Part shown: in pieces, positions 1,934-14,284 of the stretch | Layout of the letters: every line of letters starts with the position of its first letter | Numbering within the stretch: position 1 is the first letter of the stretch | Origin: a virus | Lineage: Duplodnaviria > Heunggongvirae > Uroviricota > Caudoviricetes | Strand: one strand, 5' to 3' | IMG/VR virus record: IMGVR_UViG_2681813269_000007 | Length of the DNA: 22,505 bases | Notes under the pieces: generated by a model | Told to the model about the DNA's origin: nothing | Seen by the model: the letters and a program-made list of their open reading frames with translations, nothing else | Database searches by the model: none | Position numbers and translations under genes: made by a program

Positions 1934-2899
1934 TTAATTATCAGTAGATTGTTCCTCTAGTAACAACTCAATTCTGCTTAGTATTTCTTTAGATATTTTG
2001 CGGCTATCAATTTTTATAGTTACAAAATTACCTTTATATCTAGCCGTGATCCCTTCCCCATATTTTTTCTCGTCTTTTGTTTTTTCCTCGTCGCCAACCA
2101 GAACAGAGTCAGATAATATTTGTATAATCCGTGAAGCTTCTAAATCCTCGCCGTTTTTTTTAATTGCCAGAAGATGATGAGCAGCATTGCTCATGGCAGC
2201 CATGTTTTTTTTGTAAACCTTAAACAAAGAATCTCCAGCACGAGCTGACAGTTCTCCTGGATGATTGAAGATAGCTAATATATCTTTTGGTAGACCAGCT
2301 GTATTAATACAGCGAGTGATAATATTTCTATCTATATTTTCAGCCTCGGCTAATGCTTTAACGTTACCATCAAAGTCATTTAGCTTGCGTAAGTATCTCT
2401 TTCCTCTTTCGTATGCACTAATAGGCCTATAATCGTTACCAATTTGGGATAACCAATGCATCTGTTCATCGTCGAGATCACCAATTAAGACGCGATAGTC
2501 ACATCCTGTTAATATCGCTGCTTTTCTTCTACGTGAGCCGTCAGCGACTTCAACGATTCCAGATACTTTTCTGGCGAAAGCTGGATTTTGTTGTCCAGAC
2601 GTTAGAAAAGATGGGATTAAATCGGCTAGAGAGGATTCATTTAATAAATCTTGATCGCGTTCATTACCTAGCCATACCATTGTTGCCATTTCAACTTTAT
2701 CTGCGGGAATTGTCTCTAACTTAAAGTTAACATTACGTCCGCATACTGGCAAAGTTATGCTGTTACCGGTTAATGAACTCAGTTGACGTTTTAAATCACC
2801 AACCATAGGTGATACGGGCTGATGTTCAGGGGCATGATGATTATTACTCATAATGCGATTAATATCTGGAGCATTTTTTAGAAGAGAGCGCTGTTTCAT
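1934..2899 (-). CDS. sopB: Partition protein SopB (ParB family, centromere-binding)
   Basis: 321-aa ORF colinear with F-plasmid SopB as I recall it (ITLPVCGR, WxGNERDQ, DLIPSF, PAFxRxVSG, IADGSRRRKAA, DYRVLxGxLDDEQM, GNDYRPxSAYERG, CINTAxLPK, HPGELSAR). Start overlaps the sopA stop. Confidence 0.9.
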   Translation of the reverse strand: MKQRSLLKNAPDINRIMSNNHHAPEHQPVSPMVGDLKRQLSSLTGNSITLPVCGRNVNFKLETIPADKVEMATMVWLGNERDQDLLNESSLADLIPSFLTSGQQNPAFARKVSGIVEVADGSRRRKAAILTGCDYRVLIGDLDDEQMHWLSQIGNDYRPISAYERGKRYLRKLNDFDGNVKALAEAENIDRNIITRCINTAGLPKDILAIFNHPGELSARAGDSLFKVYKKNMAAMSNAAHHLLAIKKNGEDLEASRIIQILSDSVLVGDEEKTKDEKKYGEGITARYKGNFVTIKIDSRKISKEILSRIELLLEEQSTDN

Positions 2900-4065
2900 T
2901 ATTCGTTCTCCCAGCGAGGTTTTATTAGATCATCAAAAATTTCTCGGCAAACAGGGTCCCATATAGAAACAGCATTTCTCCATGCATTCAATGTTGAACG
3001 TTGGTTTGCTGCTTGTTCAAATACTGTTCTCATTTTTATCTGGCCTTTACCTACTTCATCGGTAACGCGTACAACCTGACGTAATACCATTGATCCCCAT
3101 GTATTTCTTATTTGTTCTTCCATCCATCGTGATTGATTCCCTGTAGTGAGACTATATTTAGTCAGAAGTAAGCGAACGGTTGGCTCAAATCCACCTAGGT
3201 CAACGCTTTCCAATAGATCGAGAAGCATTGTGAAAAACTGTAGAACAGAAGCGTAATCAAATAATTCTGCAGGTGTAGCAACAACAATAACGTCAGCGGC
3301 ACAAACAACGTTAATGGTTCCTGTACCGAGGTTCGGAGCACTATCTATAACGATAACATCGTAGTTATCCCAAACTGATTCAATAGCTGCGCGCAGCATA
3401 AGGTGTGGAGGATGAGGCAATTTACCCTGAGCATGATATTGCATGAGATCTGTTTCTATACGATGTAAAGCTAGGCAGCTAGGGATAATGTCTAGCCCAG
3501 GCCAACATGTTGGCTTTATAGCATATTCAGCGTTATCGCGTTCTCCTAAGTAAAATGGCAGTAAAGTATCCTCGGCATGGATATGTAAATCAGGAACATA
3601 ACCGTGATACATAGAGGCCGTGCCTTGAGGATCGTTACCTTCAACCAAAAGAACACGATGACCTTGTAATGCTAACCATTGAGCTTGATGTACCGCAGAC
3701 GATGTTTTATAAACGCCGCCTTTGTGTGACATAACGGCAAGCGCAACAGGGTTTTTATCTTGTGGTCGTTGGTTTGGGTTGCCAAAAACTGCTCGCATAC
3801 TGTTGATTTGATCTATGGTATAACCAGCACGACGTTCAATTCTTCCTCTCATTTCAAAGTCAGGTGCAGGTAAACGCCCGCTCTTCTCAGCATCTCTAAT
3901 TGCTTGAGGAGTTACACCAATTAAATCTGCTACTTCAGTTATACCCCATCGGCGGGTGATACGCCGAGCTTCAGGACTATCATCACCGAATTGAGCGATA
4001 GCAATTGCTTTGGTCATTTCTTGACCTCTCGTAACACAATCTTGCAATAACTTTTTCAAAGACAT
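2899..4065 (-). CDS. sopA: Partition ATPase SopA (ParA family, type Ia with N-terminal HTH extension)
   Basis: 388-aa ORF with GGAGATGA RBS. Deviant Walker A KGGVYKTS, a long N-terminal extension, and the same length as F SopA. Transcribed divergently from telN. Confidence 0.9.
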   Translation of the reverse strand: MSLKKLLQDCVTRGQEMTKAIAIAQFGDDSPEARRITRRWGITEVADLIGVTPQAIRDAEKSGRLPAPDFEMRGRIERRAGYTIDQINSMRAVFGNPNQRPQDKNPVALAVMSHKGGVYKTSSAVHQAQWLALQGHRVLLVEGNDPQGTASMYHGYVPDLHIHAEDTLLPFYLGERDNAEYAIKPTCWPGLDIIPSCLALHRIETDLMQYHAQGKLPHPPHLMLRAAIESVWDNYDVIVIDSAPNLGTGTINVVCAADVIVVATPAELFDYASVLQFFTMLLDLLESVDLGGFEPTVRLLLTKYSLTTGNQSRWMEEQIRNTWGSMVLRQVVRVTDEVGKGQIKMRTVFEQAANQRSTLNAWRNAVSIWDPVCREIFDDLIKPRWENE

Positions 4066-4712: not shown

Positions 4713-6626
4713 ATGAGCAAAGTAAAAATCGGTGAATTAATAAACTCACTTGTTAGCGATGTTGAGTCAATAGATAACTCTGACCGTCCTCAAGGGGAGA
4801 AAACAAAAAAAATAAAGGCTGTTGCATTAAAATTTAAAAATGCATTATTTAATGACAAGCGAAAGTTTAGGGGGAAAGGATTAGAAAAAAGAATTACAGC
4901 CAACACATTCAATGCCTATATGAGCAGGGCCAGAAAACGGTTTGATGATAAACTTCATCATAGCTTTGAAAAAAATATACATCGCCTATCTGAAAAGTAT
5001 CCTTTATATAATGAGGAGCTATTGTCATGGCTTTCTCTACCTGCTGCCGATATTCGCCAGAGAATGTCAGCTTTACAGGCAAAATTAAAATTAATTCTCC
5101 CTCTATCAGAAGATTTATCTAATATCAGAATTGGCGATAACAAAAGTCATAATAAGTTATTGAAATTATCAAATAAATATAAAGAGTGGCAATTCGCCAT
5201 TTCTGATTTAACTAGCGATAACTGGAAAGATAAGCGCGATTATTTATATAAATTACTACAGCAAGGATCTGCCTTACTTGAGGAGTTGAATCAGCTAAAA
5301 GTTAACCATGAGATTCTCTATCATCTTCAACTAAGCCCTGCCGAACGTGCATCTATCCAGCAACGATGGGCGGACGTTCTGCACAATAAGAAACGTAACG
5401 TGGTGGTCATTGATTACCCTAAATATATGCAAGCTATTTACGATATTATAAATAGCCCTGCTACATTAAATAATCTAAACACTCGTTCAGGTATGGCTCC
5501 TTTGGCATTTGCACTTGCTGCATTGTCAGGAAGACGAATGATTGAGATTATGTATCAAGGTACATTTACTGTTTCTGGTAAGTATACCGTTGATTTTTTA
5601 GGCCAAGCTAAAAAAAGAACTTCTGATGATATAACCAGAAAAATATATACATTATGCGAAGCAAAAACATTTGTTTATTTAATAAATGTACTTCGCTCAT
5701 GCCCAGCAGCATCTGATTTTGATGATGTCGTTAAAGGTTATGGAGATAACGATACACGCTCTGAAAACGGACGTATTAATGCCATATTAGCAAAGGCTTT
5801 TAACCCGTGGGTTAAATCATTTTTCAAAGATGACCGCCGTGTTTATAAAGATAGTCGTGCTATTTATGCCCGTATTGCGTATGAAATGTTTTTCCGCGTA
5901 GATCCTCGTTGGAAAAACGTAGATGAAGATGTTTTCTTTATGGAAATTTTAGGCCATGACGATGAAAACACTCAATTACACTATAAGCAATTCAAGCTGG
6001 CCAACTTCTCAAAGACATGGAGGCCAAATACTGGAAACGAAAATACCAGGCTGGAAGCATTGCAGCAGCTTGATGACGAAATGCCTGGATTCGCCAGAGG
6101 AGATGCCGGGGTTCGTCTGCATAACACAGTTAAGCAGCTGGTAGAGCAGGACCCCTCTATAAAAATCACGAACAGCACTCTAAGAGCGTTCAAATTTAGC
6201 CCAACAATGATTAGTCGATACCTGGAATTTGCTGCTGATGCTCTGGGGCAATTTGTTGGCGAAAACGGACAATGGCAACTGAAAATAGATACTCCAGAAA
6301 TCGTTATGCCTGACGAAGAAGAACTGGAAGCAATACCTGAACTGGCGGATGAATTATCAGAGGATGACGATCTGGATGACGACGAAATTGAGATAGAGGA
6401 AGAGGAAGAGGAAGAGGAAGAGGAAGAGGAAGAGAGCGTAGAAGAACAGCAACCGCCTGCACCTTCTTCGCCTGTATCTAAGCCGGTATTTAAGCCGGTG
6501 AGAAATATTGGTGATGGCTCATACGTTGTTGAGTTTCATTATAATGGCCAGAATTATGCGTGGTCCGGCAGTGCAAACAGCCCCATGTCAGCAATGCAGT
6601 TAGCATGGCTGACATATTTCGGTTAA
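4713..6626 (+). CDS. telN: Protelomerase TelN (telomere resolvase, tyrosine-recombinase-like)
   Basis: 637-aa ORF with AGGAGAGG RBS. The N-terminus MSKVKIGELIN... and overall colinearity match N15 TelN (about 630 aa) as I recall it. An acidic C-terminal tract precedes the conserved tail. Confidence 0.92.
   Translation: MSKVKIGELINSLVSDVESIDNSDRPQGEKTKKIKAVALKFKNALFNDKRKFRGKGLEKRITANTFNAYMSRARKRFDDKLHHSFEKNIHRLSEKYPLYNEELLSWLSLPAADIRQRMSALQAKLKLILPLSEDLSNIRIGDNKSHNKLLKLSNKYKEWQFAISDLTSDNWKDKRDYLYKLLQQGSALLEELNQLKVNHEILYHLQLSPAERASIQQRWADVLHNKKRNVVVIDYPKYMQAIYDIINSPATLNNLNTRSGMAPLAFALAALSGRRMIEIMYQGTFTVSGKYTVDFLGQAKKRTSDDITRKIYTLCEAKTFVYLINVLRSCPAASDFDDVVKGYGDNDTRSENGRINAILAKAFNPWVKSFFKDDRRVYKDSRAIYARIAYEMFFRVDPRWKNVDEDVFFMEILGHDDENTQLHYKQFKLANFSKTWRPNTGNENTRLEALQQLDDEMPGFARGDAGVRLHNTVKQLVEQDPSIKITNSTLRAFKFSPTMISRYLEFAADALGQFVGENGQWQLKIDTPEIVMPDEEELEAIPELADELSEDDDLDDDEIEIEEEEEEEEEEEEESVEEQQPPAPSSPVSKPVFKPVRNIGDGSYVVEFHYNGQNYAWSGSANSPMSAMQLAWLTYFG
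6396..6431 (+). repeat. Perfect (GAGGAA)x6 in-frame hexanucleotide tandem repeat inside telN
   Basis: Six exact tandem GAGGAA units encode the poly-Glu run in the TelN C-terminal acidic linker. Confidence 0.9.
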
Positions 6627-6665: not shown

Positions 6666-6797
6666 TGTGACCTACCTCGCCTGCCCCCTGCAAAGGGCAG
6701 AAGTAACGGAGGAAACGCGGCTGCAACCACAGACATCACCGCCCCGACTGCGAGGCTTCCCTTCTCTAAGAAGGGCATAAATTCGGGCTGGTCAACC

Positions 6798-7580
6798 CTA
6801 TTTATTGGTGATTTCTGCTGGCTTTAGCTGCGCGGATAACTGCTCAAGTTTTTGAACTGCCAGTTCAAAATGCGCGGGTAACGCCTTTTCCAGATCAGAG
6901 TTAATATCGGTGATGGGTAAATCACCACACGACATACTCCGCCTACCCCCACGAACAACATCACGCAACAACTCTCGTTCATACGTGCGCATGTTCCCCA
7001 ATGCCGACTCAGCAGCCGTCAAAATCCGGCGCAGTTCTGCCGTAATTGCTGGCAAATCATCAACCGTTATGGGGTTCGGGGATGGATTACGACACGCCCG
7101 ACGCAAAGCTAACCATACACCGCTAATCCAGGCATTTCGGTACTGAAAACTTTGTGCTATATCGTTAATCAGCCCTCGCAGATACTCTTTCTGCCTCCAG
7201 TTCAACGGCTCCGCTGCTCGCATTGGCTCAGGCTCGATGTAAACGTACTCTCCATTTTTGCGAATAGAGGGCAAGACTTCGTTCGTTACCCATTTGCGAA
7301 ACCGCCAAGCTGTTGTGCCTTGCTTCACCGCGTCACGGCAGCGGAGGATCAGGGTGTATAGACCTGACTCTGAAATAATATTTAGCTTTTGCTCTCCGCC
7401 AGGGGTGTAACTTAAAGTTACACCCTTTTCATCCTCATCCAGAGACATTAGCGCCTTCCGGGAATTAACGAGTCTTAAAGCATCACATACATCCTTAGCC
7501 ACAAACCACGGCTCACCGTTAATCATCACTACACGAACCTGATGCTCTTCCTGAAAGGAAAAGACTGCTAACGCGCTCAT
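6798..7580 (-). CDS. Phage antirepressor with Bro-N-like N-terminal domain
   Basis: 260-aa ORF. The N-terminus (FQEEHQVRVVMINGEPWFVAKDVCDALRL...) fits the Bro-N / KilA-N antirepressor fold. Start overlaps the stop of the upstream small ORF. Position matches the N15 anti-immunity locus. Confidence 0.7.
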   Translation of the reverse strand: MSALAVFSFQEEHQVRVVMINGEPWFVAKDVCDALRLVNSRKALMSLDEDEKGVTLSYTPGGEQKLNIISESGLYTLILRCRDAVKQGTTAWRFRKWVTNEVLPSIRKNGEYVYIEPEPMRAAEPLNWRQKEYLRGLINDIAQSFQYRNAWISGVWLALRRACRNPSPNPITVDDLPAITAELRRILTAAESALGNMRTYERELLRDVVRGGRRSMSCGDLPITDINSDLEKALPAHFELAVQKLEQLSAQLKPAEITNK

Positions 7581-7810
7581 TCAGCCTCCTTATCGCGCAG
7601 CAAGTGCGACGAGAGAGACGCAGAATATCCCTGTGCTTCATGCGTTAACTCACACGCAATCTGCAGAAGTTTTCCAGCCTCTGAGAGGTAAATCGACGCC
7701 TCACAACTGGAGACTGTCCGATGGGCTGATGATACGAGCGCATAGACCTGAGCCAGACGTTCATCCAACGATTCCAGCAGGCCAACAGTGTTCATTTTTA
7801 CCTGATTCAT
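7577..7810 (-). CDS. Small protein, first gene of the antirepressor operon (icd-like position)
   Basis: 77-aa ORF with GAGGTGG RBS 4-5 nt upstream, translationally coupled to the downstream antirepressor. The Icd-like assignment is by position only (P1-style c4-icd-ant order). Confidence 0.5.
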   Translation of the reverse strand: MNQVKMNTVGLLESLDERLAQVYALVSSAHRTVSSCEASIYLSEAGKLLQIACELTHEAQGYSASLSSHLLRDKEAE

Positions 7811-8137
7811 GCAGCCACCTCGCGCACCGGAATACGGGCAGACAATACCAGGACAAACCGGCTGGCGAACTGGCGACGAGCTTCCCGTTCAGATGACGCG
7901 ATAGTGGAAAGATGATGAATGTGGGACTTTTTGTCTGTGCGAACGACTGCCGCAAATTTGAATTTGAACATGGTATGCACTCCGTTTTATTGGTCGTGCT
8001 ACCTCCAGAGTTGCGAATCTCTTTATTGGTGGTAGCCCAGGCGGGGTTCGCAATACCGGTAAACGAAGAAACCGGCCCGACCGAAGTCAGCCCCACCTGA
8101 GCCACCATAATTCGGATATGCGCAGGTCTATACACAT

Positions 8138-8213
8138 AAAAAAACACGCTGGCGCGTGTTGTGCGCTTCGTTTTGCCAGGATTGCGAAGTCCCGACTGCG
8201 GGATTTACCGCAG
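8138..8213 (-). ncRNA. Candidate small regulatory RNA (c4/cA-like) upstream of the antirepressor operon
   Basis: On the minus strand: -35 TTGACG (8250-8245), -10 TAAAGT (8226-8221), then about 75 nt ending in an intrinsic terminator (ACACGC-GCCA-GCGTGT plus U7, 8159-8138). The predicted RNA has a 5' hairpin CUGCGG-UAAAUC-CCGCAG. No convincing ORF in the region. Confidence 0.3.
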
Positions 8214-8263
8214 CGAGGTGACTTTACCTCCAAAACGACGCACACGTCAATAATTTGCAAAGA

Positions 8264-8300
8264 CATTTTACCCCGTGACCAGTCACGGGGACAGGTGTTT
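8264..8300. terminator. Hairpin separating the lipoprotein cargo block from the anti-immunity promoter region
   Basis: CCCCGTGAC-ca-GTCACGGGG lies just after the lipoprotein stop (8352, minus strand) and is followed on the plus strand by ACAGGTGTTTTTAT. Confidence 0.4.
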
Positions 8301-8351
8301 TTATAGTTTGCTTGAACAAACGATCAGAACATGAACAATGTTATTGTTCCG

Positions 8352-9164
8352 TTATAAGAAAGCCTCACGCGAACGGAACACCCACTCTAGCTGTACTGGA
8401 TAAATTTCTCCCGTTTTAATATTTATTAGGCGCGCGGCTAATAACTCACCCATAAAAACCTGAGTTTTATGGCTCATATCTGACGGGTTAAAAATAGTAG
8501 GTGATGTTATATCAATATGATTACTGCTTAACCCATTTATCTTTGCTAAATATTCAATTCTAAGGTCTTTTACATTAACATCTTTTGGTATTTGTCCTTT
8601 TATATCAATATCTGCCCATATTGTTTCAGGGTTCCCTTCATTTATTTGTGTACTACCAAAGATAATTTCGGCACCTAAAGTATTTAACACTTCTACATCA
8701 GCAGATATTCCAAAAGCATTAGCACCAACATAGCTTCCATGCTTTGTTATTTCAGAGGAATCGACATGAAAACCATACCATCCAGACATATCTCGAGATG
8801 TTATCACGCTATCACTACCGCTATTCTCAACAAAATCACGGTTAAGATATGTTCCTGAGTATGTGATACTTCTAGGGATAGACAAACCTTGAGATGTTAA
8901 AACGTTGTTGTATGGCGCGTATGTTAATGAGTGAACGACATATCCACGCCATAAACCATCATCTATCTTTGATGCAATAATTCTATTAAATTCCTTACCT
9001 GTGAGTATTTTGCTGCTAAAATCACCAACAGAGTTGATAGGTACTCTTTTTTCTTTTTCGAATTTATACTCAACGTCCGTTGATGCCTTATTATCATATT
9101 GATAAGTGCATCCAGATAATAACAAGATAGAGAGTAATAAAGCTGTTGTTTTTTTGTTACGCAT
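8352..9164 (-). CDS. Lipoprotein of unknown function (AT-rich cargo gene)
   Basis: 270-aa ORF with signal peptide and lipobox (MRNKKTTALLLSILLLSGC). The gene is markedly more AT-rich than its neighbours and has its own AT-rich upstream region. Confidence 0.8.
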   Translation of the reverse strand: MRNKKTTALLLSILLLSGCTYQYDNKASTDVEYKFEKEKRVPINSVGDFSSKILTGKEFNRIIASKIDDGLWRGYVVHSLTYAPYNNVLTSQGLSIPRSITYSGTYLNRDFVENSGSDSVITSRDMSGWYGFHVDSSEITKHGSYVGANAFGISADVEVLNTLGAEIIFGSTQINEGNPETIWADIDIKGQIPKDVNVKDLRIEYLAKINGLSSNHIDITSPTIFNPSDMSHKTQVFMGELLAARLINIKTGEIYPVQLEWVFRSREAFL

Positions 9165-9253
9165 AATATTAACTTAACCTATTTGATTAATAATATGTTA
9201 TTCCATTAAATAAAATATGCCGAGAACGGTTTAACTTGAACAGTCATCACTAT

Positions 9254-9661
9254 TCAATCAACTTTTTTAGCATCAGCCATACGTTTCAACCAGTAATCAA
9301 CAATCGGCTGCTCATCCACAGAATGTTTACCAGGTATAACTCGCCAGCTATCTTGCGAAAATCTGCCGTACTTACGCGGGAATAGGCCTTTCTTTATCTC
9401 CCGCCATGTACTAGGAAAACCATCCACAAAAGTACCAATTAACAGGAGAGGGACAAAAATCAGAGCTACAAACCATCGTGCAAGAAAGTGTTCAACAACA
9501 ACATTTTCACCGTTGTAGTAATACGCATACGCATCCAATATGCGAATTTTCCTTACCTTAAAAATAGCCTTATGCTGAGAACGACTTAACTTGATACGAA
9601 TGTATCCCTTATCCAAAGGGGATTCGTATTTGTATGATTGAACAGCCATTTTTAACCCCAC
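9254..9661 (-). CDS. Small membrane protein of unknown function
   Basis: 135-aa ORF with GGGG-containing RBS and one clear hydrophobic helix (FLARWFVALIFVPLLLIGTFV). Overlaps the upstream ORF by 10 nt. Confidence 0.6.
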   Translation of the reverse strand: MGLKMAVQSYKYESPLDKGYIRIKLSRSQHKAIFKVRKIRILDAYAYYYNGENVVVEHFLARWFVALIFVPLLLIGTFVDGFPSTWREIKKGLFPRKYGRFSQDSWRVIPGKHSVDEQPIVDYWLKRMADAKKVD

Positions 9662-9978
9662 TCACCATCAGCAAACAAAGCGTTATACTCTGACAATGGT
9701 AGACGGTTGCCCTCGATGTAGAGATTCAGTTCATACTTCGTCTCCGGGTTTTCCTTGTCGGCTCGTTCCCAACGCTCAGCAGCCTCACGCGCCAATAATT
9801 CCACTGCTTTCAGATAATCCTCCGTACGGAACCAGCCAAAGATAAGGCCACGATCTGTTACAGCCCAGGCAACCTTTTTTTCTTCCTCCTGGATAGCCTT
9901 AATGCGTCGATCGCATTCATCCCGGCAAAACTGCAGCTGACGGTAATCAAGTTTGTCCAAAAATGCAGTAGTAGACAT
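9652..9978 (-). CDS. Hypothetical protein (first gene of the three-gene cargo block)
   Basis: 108-aa ORF with GGGGAG RBS 7 nt upstream of the ATG. No recognisable motifs. Confidence 0.6.
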   Translation of the reverse strand: MSTTAFLDKLDYRQLQFCRDECDRRIKAIQEEEKKVAWAVTDRGLIFGWFRTEDYLKAVELLAREAAERWERADKENPETKYELNLYIEGNRLPLSEYNALFADGEWG

Positions 9979-10166
9979 ATTTTTACTCCCCGTTCACCGA
10001 AAAATCACGATAGAAACGTTTCCACATACGATAAGTCTGCGCGAGTTGTTCACCACGAAACATCGCCTTCCTGGCCTTCATGTTTTCCTTGTGAGACTTT
10101 CGATCTATGAACCAAAACCATTGCTGGAACACACAAAGCAAGAGACACAAAGATAATATCCACTGA

Positions 10167-13100
10167 TTACCCATAGAAAGCGCCCTGCTCTTCGTAGCTG
10201 CATGGGCTATTCCCGGTAATGTATTCACGTAACCGCCGCAGTTCATTGCTGGATAAGTGATCCATGAACTCTGTGAGGTACAGAGATGCAAACGTCATAG
10301 CTATGCTGGCTGATGACCATGATGACATAGTGGCCAGCTCCTCACCGGAAAGCGCACTCATCGCCCAGGACTCAGGTACAACCACTGGCAACACAGCCAA
10401 AGCCTCAGAAATTACTGAATGAGGGGCGTTTTGAACCTGCTCGTTTGTGGATCGCGTTTTATCATCCATATATATATTGAGATCCAAATCGCGATCCATT
10501 TCGATGGCGGTCTTCTCGGCTTTACGCGTTTTCAGGGTTAGGCCATCTTTCTGACGCTGAGCAAGAATATCCAGCATAAATGCCGCTGATTCAGGCTCAA
10601 CAAAACGCAAGGTTGGACGCTTATCGCCGTCTCTGCCGCGACGTTTACCTGTTTTAAGGCCAAGAGAGTCGCAAATGTTTTTAAACAACGCTTCCGGCAC
10701 TTTAGGCTTCCCTTTTGGCGTCATAAAACCACCAATGTGCAGAACGTTATTCAACAGGTCACGGCGTTCGGCTGTCATGAGGTTATCTCGAGCAAATTTG
10801 AGACGCTCCTGAGTCGCCTCGCCGGTCATAGTCTCAGGGTTGATACCGCAGTCGATAAAGTACTGCCGGAGAGTTGCTGATTTAAGCGCATAGAAACCGC
10901 GCGCCCCGACTTCAACAGTAGGAGTAGCTTTTACCTTGTGATCGATTATTCCAGGGAATTTAGTTTTAAAGACATCATCAGCCTGCTCGCGAGTCATCGC
11001 GGTCACTACAAAATATTGCCACTGTCCCGCCTGACGGTATGCGTAGGTAAAATTGATGGCTGCTTCTTCCCGGTCGTAACGACGAGCTGTTACCTCATCT
11101 AAAAGCATTGTTTCATAGCGGCGAACTTTGTCTCGAGCACCATCGAAATAGAATTTCAGCGTGCCTTCTTCAACCGGTAGTTTCAGTTCGTTTTCAATAT
11201 CCCAGCGGACAAGTTTTGCCTGTTCTTCAAGCGTCAGCGCGCGTTTTTTTAGCAGTTCTTCACGCTCTGATTCTTGTGGAGTTTCTGTATTGAGATGCAG
11301 ATCCAGTGTCTGTTCCCACACAATATCCCGCGCTTCTTTACGCAGCTCTTTACCGATATCATTCGCAGCATAATCGGTGGCCAGCGGCGATACCTTATAA
11401 CCGTCGCTGTGCATGATGCAGATCATGTTGCTGGCGTAGTCGTTACGCGCAGTCGCTTCAATAGCGGCTGCTTTAATTTTCATCCTGGTAAAGTCGGTAT
11501 TGGCCACCCCCATTGATATACGGTCGCCATCGAAAACGACATCCGTCAGTTCACCGTTCATACCTGCGGTAGCAAGCAATGCCTGGGCGAATGCTCGTTC
11601 TATTTTTTGCGGGTCAGTTTCACGTTTTGCACGAGCTTTATCAAAGCCGATAATAAATTCTTTTGCTGTACGGTCGCGGCGTAGCATTTGCACTGCGTCG
11701 CTGGGTACAACTTCACCACAGAACATGCCGAAATGACGGTCAAAATGTTTTTGCTCAATCGACACGCCGGATGAAATAGACGGGCTATAAATCAGGCCGT
11801 CGTATTTTTTGACCATCTTTTTCGGTTGATTGGTAAATGCTTCAACTTCTGGCTCTGGTTTGTTTTTCTGGTTTACACACAGAAATTTCTTACCAGGAAA
11901 ATGCATTCTCAGGGTGGCTGTCACATCTTCTGCAAAGGTGGAGCTGTCGGTGGCCAACATGATTTTTTCGCCATCCGATACAGCTTTCACCACCTCGGTC
12001 ATGATGCGATCTTTTTCTGTATAAAAAACCCGGATTGGCTCACCTGTTTCGCGGTTGCGAACATCAACAGGTAATTCAATTACGTGGATCTGCAGCCATG
12101 CCGGTAAACCTAGTTCTTCACGGCGTTTCATAGCCAGTTCAGCCAGGTCAACCAGCAGATCGTTCGCATCAGCATCCACCATGATTGGGTGTTGTTCCGT
12201 TCTGGCCAGCGCGTCAATTAGCGTATTGAATACAGCCACCGGGTTTTCCATAGCCCGACCGGAAAGAACGGCACGTAGCCCTTGTGTGGCCTCGTCAAAG
12301 CCAAAATAGTCGTGCTGGCGCATCAACGGTTGCCAGCAGTTTTTAACAATCGAGTTTATGCAGATGGTCAGTTTACTGGCGTATGGAGCCATTTCCTGAT
12401 AGCCAGGGTCCTGATAGTGCAGGATATCGGCTTTTACACCTTTTCCTTCTGTCATCATTTCCCACAGGCCACCAATAAGGGAGACACGGTGAGCAACAGA
12501 GATACCACGTTCTGAGCTATGCATTAATGGTCGTAACAATCCTGTAGATTTGCCGGAACCCATACCAGCACGGACGATGACTATCCCTTGTAGTGATTGC
12601 ACGTACTTCAGGACATCATCGGTCATTACCGAAGTTTCAAAACGCTTATAGGTGATATGTTGAGGGCGTTTATTGGGATCAGTTATGCGTTCGCTGAAAG
12701 AGCGCGGAGCCTGGGCAATACGGCACTTTTTATTCAGGCGACGGGCAATGTGGTCTTTTACCGTAGCGCGATAGATATTTTCCAGTCCCATTTCACGCAG
12801 AACGATGCAGAACATGTTAAATAAATCTGACGGACTGTTAGGAACCGGACAGGTTAGCATGCCTATATCCACCGCTCTCAGCAGCTCTTTGGCAAAAGTA
12901 CGACGGTTATCCCGCTTAATTGTCTTCAGGCGGTTGAGCGTCAGAGATAGCAAATCAGTACCGGTTTTCAGGCGGTTTGCTGTTGTAAATAGTTGACGTG
13001 CGGTTTCACGAAGTCCACGTAGTTTGTGCAGGTCGTTGAAGTCACTGCACTCCATTTGCGGATCGTCTTCAAAAGTTGGATAGACGCAGCGGACATCGTT

Positions 13101-14162
13101 GAATTTCGATAAGATTTCATAGCCAGTCCGCAGGCCGGTATTCCCTTTTCCTTCTGTGGCAGATTTCCGGTCATTATCCAGTGCGCAGGTGATTTTTGCC
13201 GCCGGGTACATGTTTACCAGTTGTTCCACAACATGAACCATGTTGTTAGCGGATACAGCGACAACCACAGCGTCAAAGCGTTTATATTTTTTCGTGGCAA
13301 GCCAGATGGATGCACCAGTAGCAAAACCTTCTGTAACAGCGATGTTTTGCGCCCCTTTCAGCTCACCGATAACAAAGCAGGCACCGACGAAATCGCCGCT
13401 GGTTACTGCGCTGGTCTGGTATTTCCCACCTTGTTTGTCGATTCGCTGCCAACCCACAATACGACCATCGTAACGACCGTCCAGGTGAGCCAGAGGGATA
13501 GCCATATATGTGGTTGGCCCCCGGCTCCATTTCGCACTGTCGTGACTGGTCACGCGACGCACATCACATGAACTAAAAACGTCACGAATACCTTTTTTAA
13601 TCGCATATGGCCATGAGCCGTCTTCAGCCGGAGCATGTTCCCACGCGCTGTGGAATGCCAGCCATCCCAGCAAACGTTCATGGTCCATTTGGTTGTTTTT
13701 CAGGTCATTAATTCGTTTTTGTTCTTCACGGCGACGACGTGCTTCGGCCTGACGTTCTATTCTTTCCCGTTCTTCTTCCGGTTGTGCGACCACGGTCGCA
13801 TTATTCCGTTGTTGCTCACGGCGATATTCAGAAAACAGGAAGGAGAAACCGCTCCATGAGCCAGCATCGCTGCCTTTATGGACGAAGTTAATGAACGGGT
13901 AATCAATCCCTTTGCTGTGTTCCAGCCGGGAGTAAATTTCTACGCGTCCTTTCAGGCTCTTTTCGAGAGCTTCTGGAGATGTTTTATTGTATGAAGAGTA
14001 ACGCTCAACTCCCCCGCGAGGGTTGAGTTGGATGTTGTCGGAACAGGCAGGCCAGTTGATACCAGCCATCTGTGCCAGCTCGGTTAGTTCATCCCGTGCT
14101 GCTTCAATTAGCGAGAACGGATCGCTGCCAAAGCGATCCGCATAGAAATCGTTTAATGTCAT
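10167..14162 (-). CDS. repA: Replication protein RepA (multidomain primase-helicase)
   Basis: 1331-aa ORF, close to the roughly 1324 aa I recall for N15 RepA. Walker A GMGSGKST in the central helicase region. Same orientation and position relative to cB as in N15. Confidence 0.92.
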   Translation of the reverse strand: MTLNDFYADRFGSDPFSLIEAARDELTELAQMAGINWPACSDNIQLNPRGGVERYSSYNKTSPEALEKSLKGRVEIYSRLEHSKGIDYPFINFVHKGSDAGSWSGFSFLFSEYRREQQRNNATVVAQPEEERERIERQAEARRRREEQKRINDLKNNQMDHERLLGWLAFHSAWEHAPAEDGSWPYAIKKGIRDVFSSCDVRRVTSHDSAKWSRGPTTYMAIPLAHLDGRYDGRIVGWQRIDKQGGKYQTSAVTSGDFVGACFVIGELKGAQNIAVTEGFATGASIWLATKKYKRFDAVVVAVSANNMVHVVEQLVNMYPAAKITCALDNDRKSATEGKGNTGLRTGYEILSKFNDVRCVYPTFEDDPQMECSDFNDLHKLRGLRETARQLFTTANRLKTGTDLLSLTLNRLKTIKRDNRRTFAKELLRAVDIGMLTCPVPNSPSDLFNMFCIVLREMGLENIYRATVKDHIARRLNKKCRIAQAPRSFSERITDPNKRPQHITYKRFETSVMTDDVLKYVQSLQGIVIVRAGMGSGKSTGLLRPLMHSSERGISVAHRVSLIGGLWEMMTEGKGVKADILHYQDPGYQEMAPYASKLTICINSIVKNCWQPLMRQHDYFGFDEATQGLRAVLSGRAMENPVAVFNTLIDALARTEQHPIMVDADANDLLVDLAELAMKRREELGLPAWLQIHVIELPVDVRNRETGEPIRVFYTEKDRIMTEVVKAVSDGEKIMLATDSSTFAEDVTATLRMHFPGKKFLCVNQKNKPEPEVEAFTNQPKKMVKKYDGLIYSPSISSGVSIEQKHFDRHFGMFCGEVVPSDAVQMLRRDRTAKEFIIGFDKARAKRETDPQKIERAFAQALLATAGMNGELTDVVFDGDRISMGVANTDFTRMKIKAAAIEATARNDYASNMICIMHSDGYKVSPLATDYAANDIGKELRKEARDIVWEQTLDLHLNTETPQESEREELLKKRALTLEEQAKLVRWDIENELKLPVEEGTLKFYFDGARDKVRRYETMLLDEVTARRYDREEAAINFTYAYRQAGQWQYFVVTAMTREQADDVFKTKFPGIIDHKVKATPTVEVGARGFYALKSATLRQYFIDCGINPETMTGEATQERLKFARDNLMTAERRDLLNNVLHIGGFMTPKGKPKVPEALFKNICDSLGLKTGKRRGRDGDKRPTLRFVEPESAAFMLDILAQRQKDGLTLKTRKAEKTAIEMDRDLDLNIYMDDKTRSTNEQVQNAPHSVISEALAVLPVVVPESWAMSALSGEELATMSSWSSASIAMTFASLYLTEFMDHLSSNELRRLREYITGNSPCSYEEQGAFYG
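13783..13802. other. sopC-like centromere palindrome, copy 1 (inside repA coding sequence)
   Basis: TGTGCGACC-AC-GGTCGCATT. Positions 13785-13800 (TGCGACC-AC-GGTCGCA) are a perfect 7+2+7 inverted repeat with the same GACC-AC-GGTC core as the F sopC SopB-binding site. Confidence 0.6.
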
Positions 14163-14284
14163 TTTTTAGCCATTCCATGCGAATTATGTTTTTTCGGGTT
14201 GAAAAAATCCGCAGGAGCAGCCACAATAAACGCATCTTGAATTGACGGAATCCGTCGCGTTACTGTGGCTGCTTCCTGAAAAGG

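Follow-up and report, generated by a model that had tools for sequence, protein, structure and literature searches.

The 22,505-nt stretch of viral DNA analyzed here (hereafter the window; IMG/VR record IMGVR_UViG_2681813269_000007) carries, downstream of repA, a gene for a putative lipoprotein of 270 residues. The window represents the plasmid-maintenance arm of a telomere phage-plasmid of the N15 type, and near-identical sequences were found in linear plasmids of E. coli, E. albertii, and E. fergusonii and in one IMG/VR contig. An earlier interpretation made from the letters alone (hereafter the sequence-only reading) placed the lipoprotein gene in an AT-rich block of three cargo genes between the anti-immunity locus and repA. 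The three ORFs are real and co-oriented, as it stated. However, comparison with related phages points to a self-contained, horizontally mobile cassette of a single gene, which is predicted to encode an exported, lipid-anchored protein. The cassette and its surroundings comprise the following features.

8271–8290, strand unassigned: GC hairpin CCCCGTGACTGGTCACGGGG with perfect 9-bp arms, from inverted repeat and RNA fold
8325–8351, minus strand: small hairpin directly 3′ of the lipoprotein stop codon, within the cassette, from the RNA fold of 8245–8355
8330–9238, minus strand: swap cassette of 909 bp, delimited by BLASTN against PhiR46_1
8352–9164, minus strand: lipoprotein gene, 270 aa, from ORF and translation
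8352–9978, minus strand: the three-gene block as first flagged (ORFs 8352–9164, 9254–9661, and 9652–9978)
9165–9253, minus strand: AT-rich spacer upstream of the lipoprotein gene, 25% GC
9216–9247, minus strand: 5′ end of the 131-aa gene preserved as a degenerate relic with an internal deletion, at the junction upstream of the cassette
9254–9649, minus strand: gene for a 131-aa single-pass membrane protein (phrog_15458, PHROG E = 1e-91), semi-variable backbone outside the cassette
9652–9978, minus strand: gene for a 108-aa soluble protein, homologue of N15 gp35 (phrog_10878), a core telomere-phage gene
10167–14162, minus strand: RepA, 1331 aa

The limits of the cassette were defined by BLASTN alignment to PhiR46_1, a phage for which we found no descriptive paper. 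Window positions 7485–8329 and 9239–14200 match PhiR46_1 at 98.3–98.5%, and in place of 8330–9238 PhiR46_1 has 322 bp with a gene for a 95-aa protein. The cassette contains a single ORF, and among the three block genes the mobile cargo is the lipoprotein gene only. The 131-aa protein is 99% identical in PhiR46_1 and YDC107_1, both of which are devoid of the lipoprotein, and its gene is kept in place where the lipoprotein is exchanged. In the viral contig L036, the lipoprotein is 99.6% identical but the 131-aa protein only 85%, so the two genes recombine independently. The 108-aa protein shows 63–75% amino acid identity and 54 invariant columns when aligned with N15 gp35, the NAR688 homologue, and the proteins of L004 and L019, two Enterobacter-type telomere phages. 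This gene is thus conserved from N15 to NAR688 with core-like composition, which the sequence-only reading had itself named as the outcome that would speak against cargo. Its proposal of a horizontally acquired moron holds for the lipoprotein gene, by presence and absence, composition, and position in a variable slot, but not for the 108-aa and 131-aa genes, which belong to the backbone.

Base composition sets the lipoprotein gene apart. It has a GC content of 35.2% and a GC3 of 25.8%, compared with 48–50% in its neighbors (antA/antB 49–50%, repA 48.7%). The block as a whole is not AT-rich; GC declines along the three genes from 48.3% (108 aa, equal to the backbone composition) through 40.4% (131 aa) to 35.2%. 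The 909-bp cassette has 34.2% GC. Of the 813-bp windows in the 22.5-kb sequence, only 5.5% are equally AT-rich, and telN, sopB, and the telomere region are as AT-rich as the lipoprotein gene. Seven of seven lipoprotein homologues have a GC content below that of their carrier locus.

The cassette occupies a slot with recurring edges. The upstream limit lies ~15 nt beyond the stop codon of the preceding gene, here the 131-aa gene. The downstream limit is common to all cargo variants and runs from (C)TGATCA repeats through AAGCAAACTATAAAAAC and the CCCCGTGACTGGTCACGGGG hairpin to a promoter-like site and the cA RNA region. The same GC hairpin stands at the slot edge in N15, YDC107_1, PhiR46_1, NAR688, and L004, regardless of cargo. 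Together, AAGCAAACTATAAAAAC, (C)TGATCA, and the GC hairpin mark a fixed cA-side edge, and the hairpin is a backbone element rather than a part of the block. It probably terminates the repA-operon transcript before the cA promoter. Hairpins downstream of the block, which the sequence-only reading had noted, do exist (two were identified), and the fold of 8245–8355 is better than that of all shuffled sequences (200/200, z = −2.9), but the GC hairpin, being conserved in the backbone, is not a property of the block. The smaller hairpin after the lipoprotein stop codon has no clear U-tract. We also considered the GC hairpin as an N15-type SopB centromere and ruled this out, as the N15 IR1–4 sites (GTGCGACCnnGGTCGCAC; PMC7205306) are unlike CCCCGTGACTGGTCACGGGG.

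Two further observations concern the slot edge. An imperfect second copy of the palindrome core, GTCGTGACTGGTCACGCG, with three mismatches, lies at 13539–13556 in the 5′ part of repA; two matches to this core were found, with 0.03 expected by chance. In addition, paired and closely spaced CTGATCAG palindromes (Dam sites) are present at the cA-side edge in N15, YDC107_1, NAR688, and L004, and a single degenerate copy, TTCTGATCG, is left in the window. These palindromes could be a protein-binding site, a recombination site, or a methylation-sensitive element. The region containing them was located as follows.

8321–8329 in the window, ~5500–5530 in L003 (N15), 3670–3700 in L020 (NAR688), 5480–5510 in L004, and also in L002: cA-side slot edge with the CTGATCAG region

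The upstream junction records how the cassette may have arrived. The relic found there is 32 nt long and consists of ATGaCTGTTCAA fused to GTTAAaCcGTTCTCgGCATA, with ~47 nt lost between TCAA microhomologies. It was recognized from the direct repeats D1 (9216–9239 versus 9571–9594, 88%) and D12 (9236–9247 versus 9638–9649, 92%), and it is kept in all three other lipoprotein-bearing telomere phages checked (L034, L036, and L038). This suggests that the cassette was acquired via recombination within, or duplication of, the 131-aa gene. In the adjoining AT-rich spacer, a consensus scan of 9165–9260 found no minus-strand consensus promoter; the best relaxed match is TCGGCA-17-TAACAT (8/12), and the Shine-Dalgarno sequence is poor. 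Promoter-like matches upstream of the lipoprotein cassettes reach only 8–9/12 and are not conserved between cassettes. A promoter traveling with the gene was rejected, since no conserved −35/−10 pair occurs upstream of seven homologues.

A comparison of presence and absence across telomere phages, which the sequence-only reading had proposed, shows that the cassette varies between phage-plasmids that are 98–99% identical. Matching flanks were found in 17 complete E. coli genomes; three of these have the lipoprotein cassette, 12 have a 614-bp version, and two match only at the cA-side flank, so that the cassette is missing from 14 of the 17. The 614-bp version is consistent with the 95-aa gene, as checked in one record (L035). 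This gene, the commonest alternative occupant, encodes a secreted protein with a signal peptide and four Cys residues in PhiR46_1; its matches are limited to PHROGs without a known function, Pfam gave no family, and the depositors' label "Spackle" was not reproduced. The slot holds a 74-aa gene in YDC107_1 and gp33 in N15.

NAR688, a Klebsiella phage, has the pore-forming telocin TelA in this slot, together with the corresponding immunity protein ImmA; the boundary motif is the same, and ImmA lies on the strand and in the position of the lipoprotein gene. The telocin locus lies between RepA and protelomerase in Klebsiella telomere phages, and TelA and ImmA were detected in the lysogen proteome (PMC12042878). 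The lipoprotein gene therefore sits at a site already known for cargo exchange, and in at least one relative the genes at this site are expressed in the lysogen. A LexA-box-like palindrome, CTGTATAAACGTACAG, was also seen just upstream of telA (L020, 3810–3830), which suggests that telocin expression from this slot is SOS-inducible.

A rare lipoprotein family and its carriers

In the N-terminus of the protein, MRNKKTTALLLSILLLSGC, positive charge and a hydrophobic core precede the lipobox L-S-G-C19, and the residue at +2 is Thr. The classic lipobox reported by the sequence-only reading is therefore present, and the n-region, the h-region, and a lipobox of the form [LVI][ASTVI][GAS]C within ~35 residues are those of a signal peptidase II lipoprotein. 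Eighteen of 19 aligned family members have the lipobox, and none has Asp at +2; the single member devoid of a lipobox is a Xanthomonas protein with an ordinary type I signal peptide. Under the Lol avoidance rule of Enterobacterales, lipoproteins without Asp at +2 are sorted to the outer membrane. The lipoprotein should thus be sorted there by the Lol pathway.

AlphaFold2 with 18 sequences gave a confident model (pLDDT 85.1, pTM 0.77); with six close sequences the pLDDT was 45.8, and it rose to 85.1 when distant members were added. Residues 20–36 form a low-confidence tether (~17 residues), followed by a helix at 56–69 and by long antiparallel strands in a sheet between 129 and 264. The mature lipoprotein is accordingly modeled as a short tether and a beta-rich globular domain. 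Foldseek searches of the PDB and BFVD returned nothing at E ≤ 1e-3, and a PDB profile search yielded only noise at the level of the signal peptide. No Pfam hit was obtained at E ≤ 0.1. The sequence-only reading had assigned no motif to any of the three block proteins, and we likewise found no fitting Pfam, NCBIfam, or PADLOC family for them.

The family is small. An exhaustive profile search of 1.84 billion representatives gave 20 proteins, and only five clusters were found among 5.8 billion protein clusters, one at 99% identity and four at 53–63%. When the word-indexed protein search was repeated with the family profile, only one more, distant protein was gained. A scan of genome contigs returned no relatives, and a scan of viral contigs with the close alignment returned five contigs. 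Conserved motifs are Y-x-G-x-N-A-F-G, IEYLAKL, SPTxxxP, and LLAARLINxKTGxxYP, and the residues invariant family-wide are Tyr145, Asn149, Ala150, and Gly152; no conserved catalytic residues were seen in the family alignment. The sole library family with a signal is phrog_13753, which matches the query at E = 1.4e-3 over residues 135–259, about half of the model, and matches distant family members at 1.5e-7 (L018) and 2.4e-8 (P0016). Compared with a 95.6%-identical copy in L034, the whole gene has a dN/dS of 0.18, which indicates purifying selection; positive selection was also considered and has no whole-gene signal. We found no paper that mentions the accession numbers or phrog_13753. The family is rare and uncharacterized, with no structural analogue detected among solved structures and viral models.

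Homologues reside on a wide range of elements. Divergent telomere phages carry them at 51–59% identity in the same slot. In ColE1/MOBP mobilizable plasmids of 2.7–4.4 kb from Salmonella, Enterobacter, Klebsiella, and E. coli, the homologue is the lone gene besides those for replication and mobilization. Six independent insertions lie in lambdoid tail operons at four junctions, namely chaperone|tape-measure (three lineages: P0012, P0014, and P0016), tape-measure|M, M|L, and K|I. The K|I homologue (L041) is part of a moron island beside a gene for a Lom/Ail-like outer-membrane protein. One homologue is located 18 nt downstream of a CI-like S24 repressor gene in a Xanthomonas prophage, and another is found in an integrative mobilizable element. 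The carriers include human, pig, bird, and clinical Enterobacterales. The family is a promiscuous stand-alone moron, present on phage-plasmids and tiny plasmids as well as in lambdoid tail operons and in one operon with a repressor gene. A conserved partner gene was rejected, as the upstream neighbors (143, 138, and 116 aa) are unlike the 131-aa protein and unlike one another. A gene at 3153–3569 of L014, just upstream of the homologue P0005, encodes a different lipoprotein of 138 aa (…ALAAC…); in this metagenomic context the two genes form a two-lipoprotein cargo island downstream of a gene for a protein of >1000 aa.

Candidate functions of the lipoprotein

From genomic context and localization signals, we infer that envelope-acting exclusion or defense is the most plausible functional reading; the commonest alternative cargo of the slot, the 95-aa protein, is likewise secreted. 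We tentatively propose, with somewhat less than even confidence, that the lipoprotein is an envelope barrier expressed in the lysogen that causes superinfection exclusion. In the proposed mechanism, the protein would be lipidated at Cys19, and the Lol pathway would place it in the inner leaflet of the outer membrane; there, the short, flexible tether would hold the beta-rich domain in the periplasm. Expression in the lysogen would come from read-through of the repA operon, from a weak promoter in the AT-rich spacer, or from both. By analogy with characterized elements, the slot and the positions of the homologues appear to match ones that are transcribed in lysogens. Since the family invariants are Tyr, Asn, Ala, and Gly and not a catalytic set, the lipoprotein may act by binding, non-enzymatically. 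Its target could be the periplasmic face of an outer-membrane receptor or the incoming complex of tail tip and tape measure, and a superinfecting phage would then fail at DNA delivery. Interference with the tail tip or tape measure in the periplasm would fall at the same stage as the action of HK97 gp15. A bolder form of this proposal, which we regard as doubtful, is that the family constitutes a structurally new, single-gene periplasmic barrier that keeps the genome of an adsorbed phage from entering, for instance by trapping the tape-measure/tail-tip complex on its way across the periplasm. Such a barrier would be self-sufficient and would therefore spread among phage-plasmids, lambdoid phages, integrative elements, and 3-kb plasmids.

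Several points weigh against superinfection exclusion. Because of the missing consensus promoter and the poor Shine-Dalgarno sequence upstream of the gene, expression in the lysogen is an assumption. The tail-operon positions are also compatible with late expression, and the whole-gene dN/dS of 0.18 carries no arms-race signature. The "Spackle" label of the alternative cargo is a depositor annotation that our searches did not reproduce. Finally, an orphan immunity protein or another lysogenic-conversion function fits the same contexts.

The main alternative, which we consider unlikely, is that the lipoprotein confers immunity or resistance, as an orphan protein, to a toxin acting in the periplasm, such as a bacteriocin, a telocin, a colicin-M-like toxin, or an effector of the type VI secretion system or of a contact-dependent system. 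Such a protein would bind and neutralize the incoming toxin domain in the periplasm, or mask its receptor or translocator. The use of the slot as a telocin:immunity locus in Klebsiella telomere phages, with ImmA matching the lipoprotein gene in strand and position, accords with this role, as do the occurrence of the gene as sole cargo of small ColE1-type plasmids, which are classic bacteriocin carriers, and the prediction of a periplasmic, lipid-anchored protein without catalytic conservation. However, the lipoprotein is unrelated to ImmA, which has four transmembrane helices, and to any immunity family of Pfam or NCBIfam. A linked toxin gene is present in none of the ~14 contexts examined, and the six tail-operon insertions resemble known exclusion morons more than immunity genes.

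We consider it decidedly improbable that the protein is a lysogenic-conversion factor for fitness or virulence, which would confer serum resistance, adhesion, or tolerance to envelope stress in the manner of lambda Bor/Lom or plasmid TraT. A predicted outer-membrane lipoprotein on mobile elements, the Lom/Ail-like neighbor in the moron island of L041, and the human, pig, bird, and clinical origin of the carriers would all suit this role. On the other hand, no similarity to the Bor, TraT, or Lom families was found, and homologues also occur beside the repressor in the prophage of a plant pathogen (Xanthomonas) and in metagenomic elements; these occurrences argue for a host-independent benefit.

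A function in the phage cycle itself seems less credible still. T5 Llp has been proposed to block the receptor at a late stage of infection and so to save progeny from being lost on debris, and the lipoprotein might likewise block a receptor late or aid tail or envelope events at lysis, as the six homologues within tail operons, adjoining tape-measure or tail-tip genes, would allow. However, homologues are cargo of tiny plasmids and of an integrative mobilizable element that have no phage genes, the gene is dispensable in 14 of the 17 related E. coli phage-plasmids, and the copy in the window lies in the plasmid-maintenance arm and not among late genes. The weakest candidate, joint acquisition and action of the three genes as one envelope module (soluble, membrane, and lipoprotein components), draws on their co-orientation, tight packing, declining GC, and two envelope-targeted products of three, but is essentially refuted, as every telomere phage examined has the 108-aa gene in its core, the 131-aa gene is unchanged where the lipoprotein is replaced, homologues elsewhere never occur with 108-aa or 131-aa partners, and L036 shows independent recombination.

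These results resolve a loosely defined AT-rich block into a cassette with exact limits, located in a cargo hotspot of telomere phages. In Klebsiella, interbacterial weapons are known from this hotspot, and we show here that it holds a different, envelope-targeted cargo in Escherichia. Genes that recur as the only cargo of tiny plasmids and as morons in tail operons follow a pattern typical of self-sufficient protective genes. If the lipoprotein is indeed an exclusion or immunity factor, it would represent a new fold, and possibly a new mechanism, for envelope-level defense, and phage-plasmids, plasmids, and phages would share one pool of such genes. Without an exclusion or immunity phenotype, it would be an ordinary uncharacterized moron.

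Neighboring genes and the anti-immunity control region

The remaining features of the window are listed below.

1934–4065, minus strand: sopBA-like genes
4713–6626, plus strand: protelomerase (telN)
6798–7580, minus strand: Bro-N antirepressor antB, 260 aa
7577–7810, minus strand: antA-like gene
8025–8112, minus strand: C4-type antisense RNA (cA), Rfam, full length, 82 bits
8139–8214, minus strand: isrK-like Hfq-binding RNA just upstream of the C4 RNA, Rfam 52.8 bits, barely over the 50-bit threshold
8250–8221: promoter-like site TTGACG-18-TAAAGT, just downstream of the GC hairpin, from a consensus promoter scan
9983–10174, minus strand: small ORF of 63 aa, hydrophobic helix at the N-terminus, the fourth gene to share this orientation in the repA-distal operon

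Downstream of repA, the minus strand carries an operon tail composed of backbone genes, namely the 63-aa ORF, the gp35-like 108-aa gene, and the 131-aa membrane-protein gene, followed by the cargo slot. The 63-aa ORF was overlooked in the three-gene block of the sequence-only reading. It overlaps the repA stop codon, with its ATG within ...CTATGGGTAA, is annotated at the equivalent position of PhiR46_1, and is 95–100% conserved in L036 and L038. No family match was found for it, and none of the four proteins matched a PADLOC-DB v2 family at E ≤ 1. The 131-aa protein has one strongly hydrophobic segment at residues ~60–78 (Kyte-Doolittle 2.27). For its gene, the ATG at 9649, which gives 131 aa as in the PhiR46_1 annotation, is a more likely start than the GTG at 9661.

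On the other side of the slot, the C4 RNA, the isrK-like RNA, and TTGACG-18-TAAAGT together make up the region that controls the anti-immunity (antirepressor) operon. antB is intact in the window (260 aa); it is mostly lost in PhiR46_1 and several E. coli relatives, where a 54-aa remnant is left (window 6688–7484 versus L001 2166–2218). A full-length IS009 match in Rfam (220 bits) was also seen at 1669–1867 on the plus strand, inside a 193-aa ORF (1320–1901). In the 56-kb viral contig that comprises L036 and L037 (IMGVR_UViG_3300045988_113976), the region is present twice, inverted, with two facing copies of telN. Such an inverted duplication is the expected assembly signature of a hairpin-ended linear replicon or of its replicative dimer.

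Comparison with known systems

Morons are genes added to a phage genome as independent units (Juhala et al. 2000, summarized in PMC3594210). The lipoprotein gene is absent between the same flanks in close relatives and has a deviant base composition, as morons do. The nearest counterparts by position are the telocin:immunity cassettes TelA/ImmA to TelE/ImmE (PMC12042878), which lie in the same slot between gp35-like genes and the cA/antirepressor locus and share its TGATCA/GC-hairpin edge. These cassettes are swappable like the lipoprotein cassette, and telocin products are found in lysogens. They differ in content. Each combines a pore-forming bacteriocin, an inner-membrane immunity protein with four transmembrane helices, and an SOS-box promoter, whereas the lipoprotein cassette consists of one gene with no toxin and no LexA box, and its product is unlike TelA or ImmA of NAR688.

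Another single-gene, envelope-located moron is gp15 of HK97, a superinfection-exclusion moron at the chaperone|tape-measure junction (PMC3594210), and the distant family members P0012, P0014, and P0016 occupy the same insertion site. However, gp15 is a small, YebO-like inner-membrane protein with no sequence relation to these lipoproteins of ~250–300 aa, and the lipoprotein gene of the window does not lie in a tail operon. The lipoprotein and phrog_13753, which has no annotated function, have a C-terminal beta-rich core in common. Since the match of the query is marginal, the query would be better placed as a divergent sister group of phrog_13753 than as a clear member. T4 Spackle is a periplasmic exclusion protein, and the 95-aa occupant of the slot bears that label, which is unconfirmed; such a label would suggest a preference of the slot for exclusion proteins that act in the periplasm. 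The lipoprotein has no relation to the 95-aa protein.

Cor of phi80 and N15 and Llp of T5 are outer-membrane lipoproteins for superinfection exclusion that inactivate the receptor from the periplasmic side. Cor has 78 aa and Llp is similarly small, whereas the lipoprotein described here has 270 aa. When the family profile was aligned with N15 Cor by hhalign, only 19 columns of the signal peptide and lipobox aligned, with no homology in the mature domain. The lipoprotein therefore lies outside the Cor family, with neither sequence nor fold in common. Nevertheless, all are phage-encoded, single-gene lipoproteins predicted to reside in the outer membrane, and Cor and Llp provide our working analogy for the mechanism. 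An envelope-acting moron for lysogenic conversion or exclusion is a familiar kind of element, here represented by an uncharacterized protein family.

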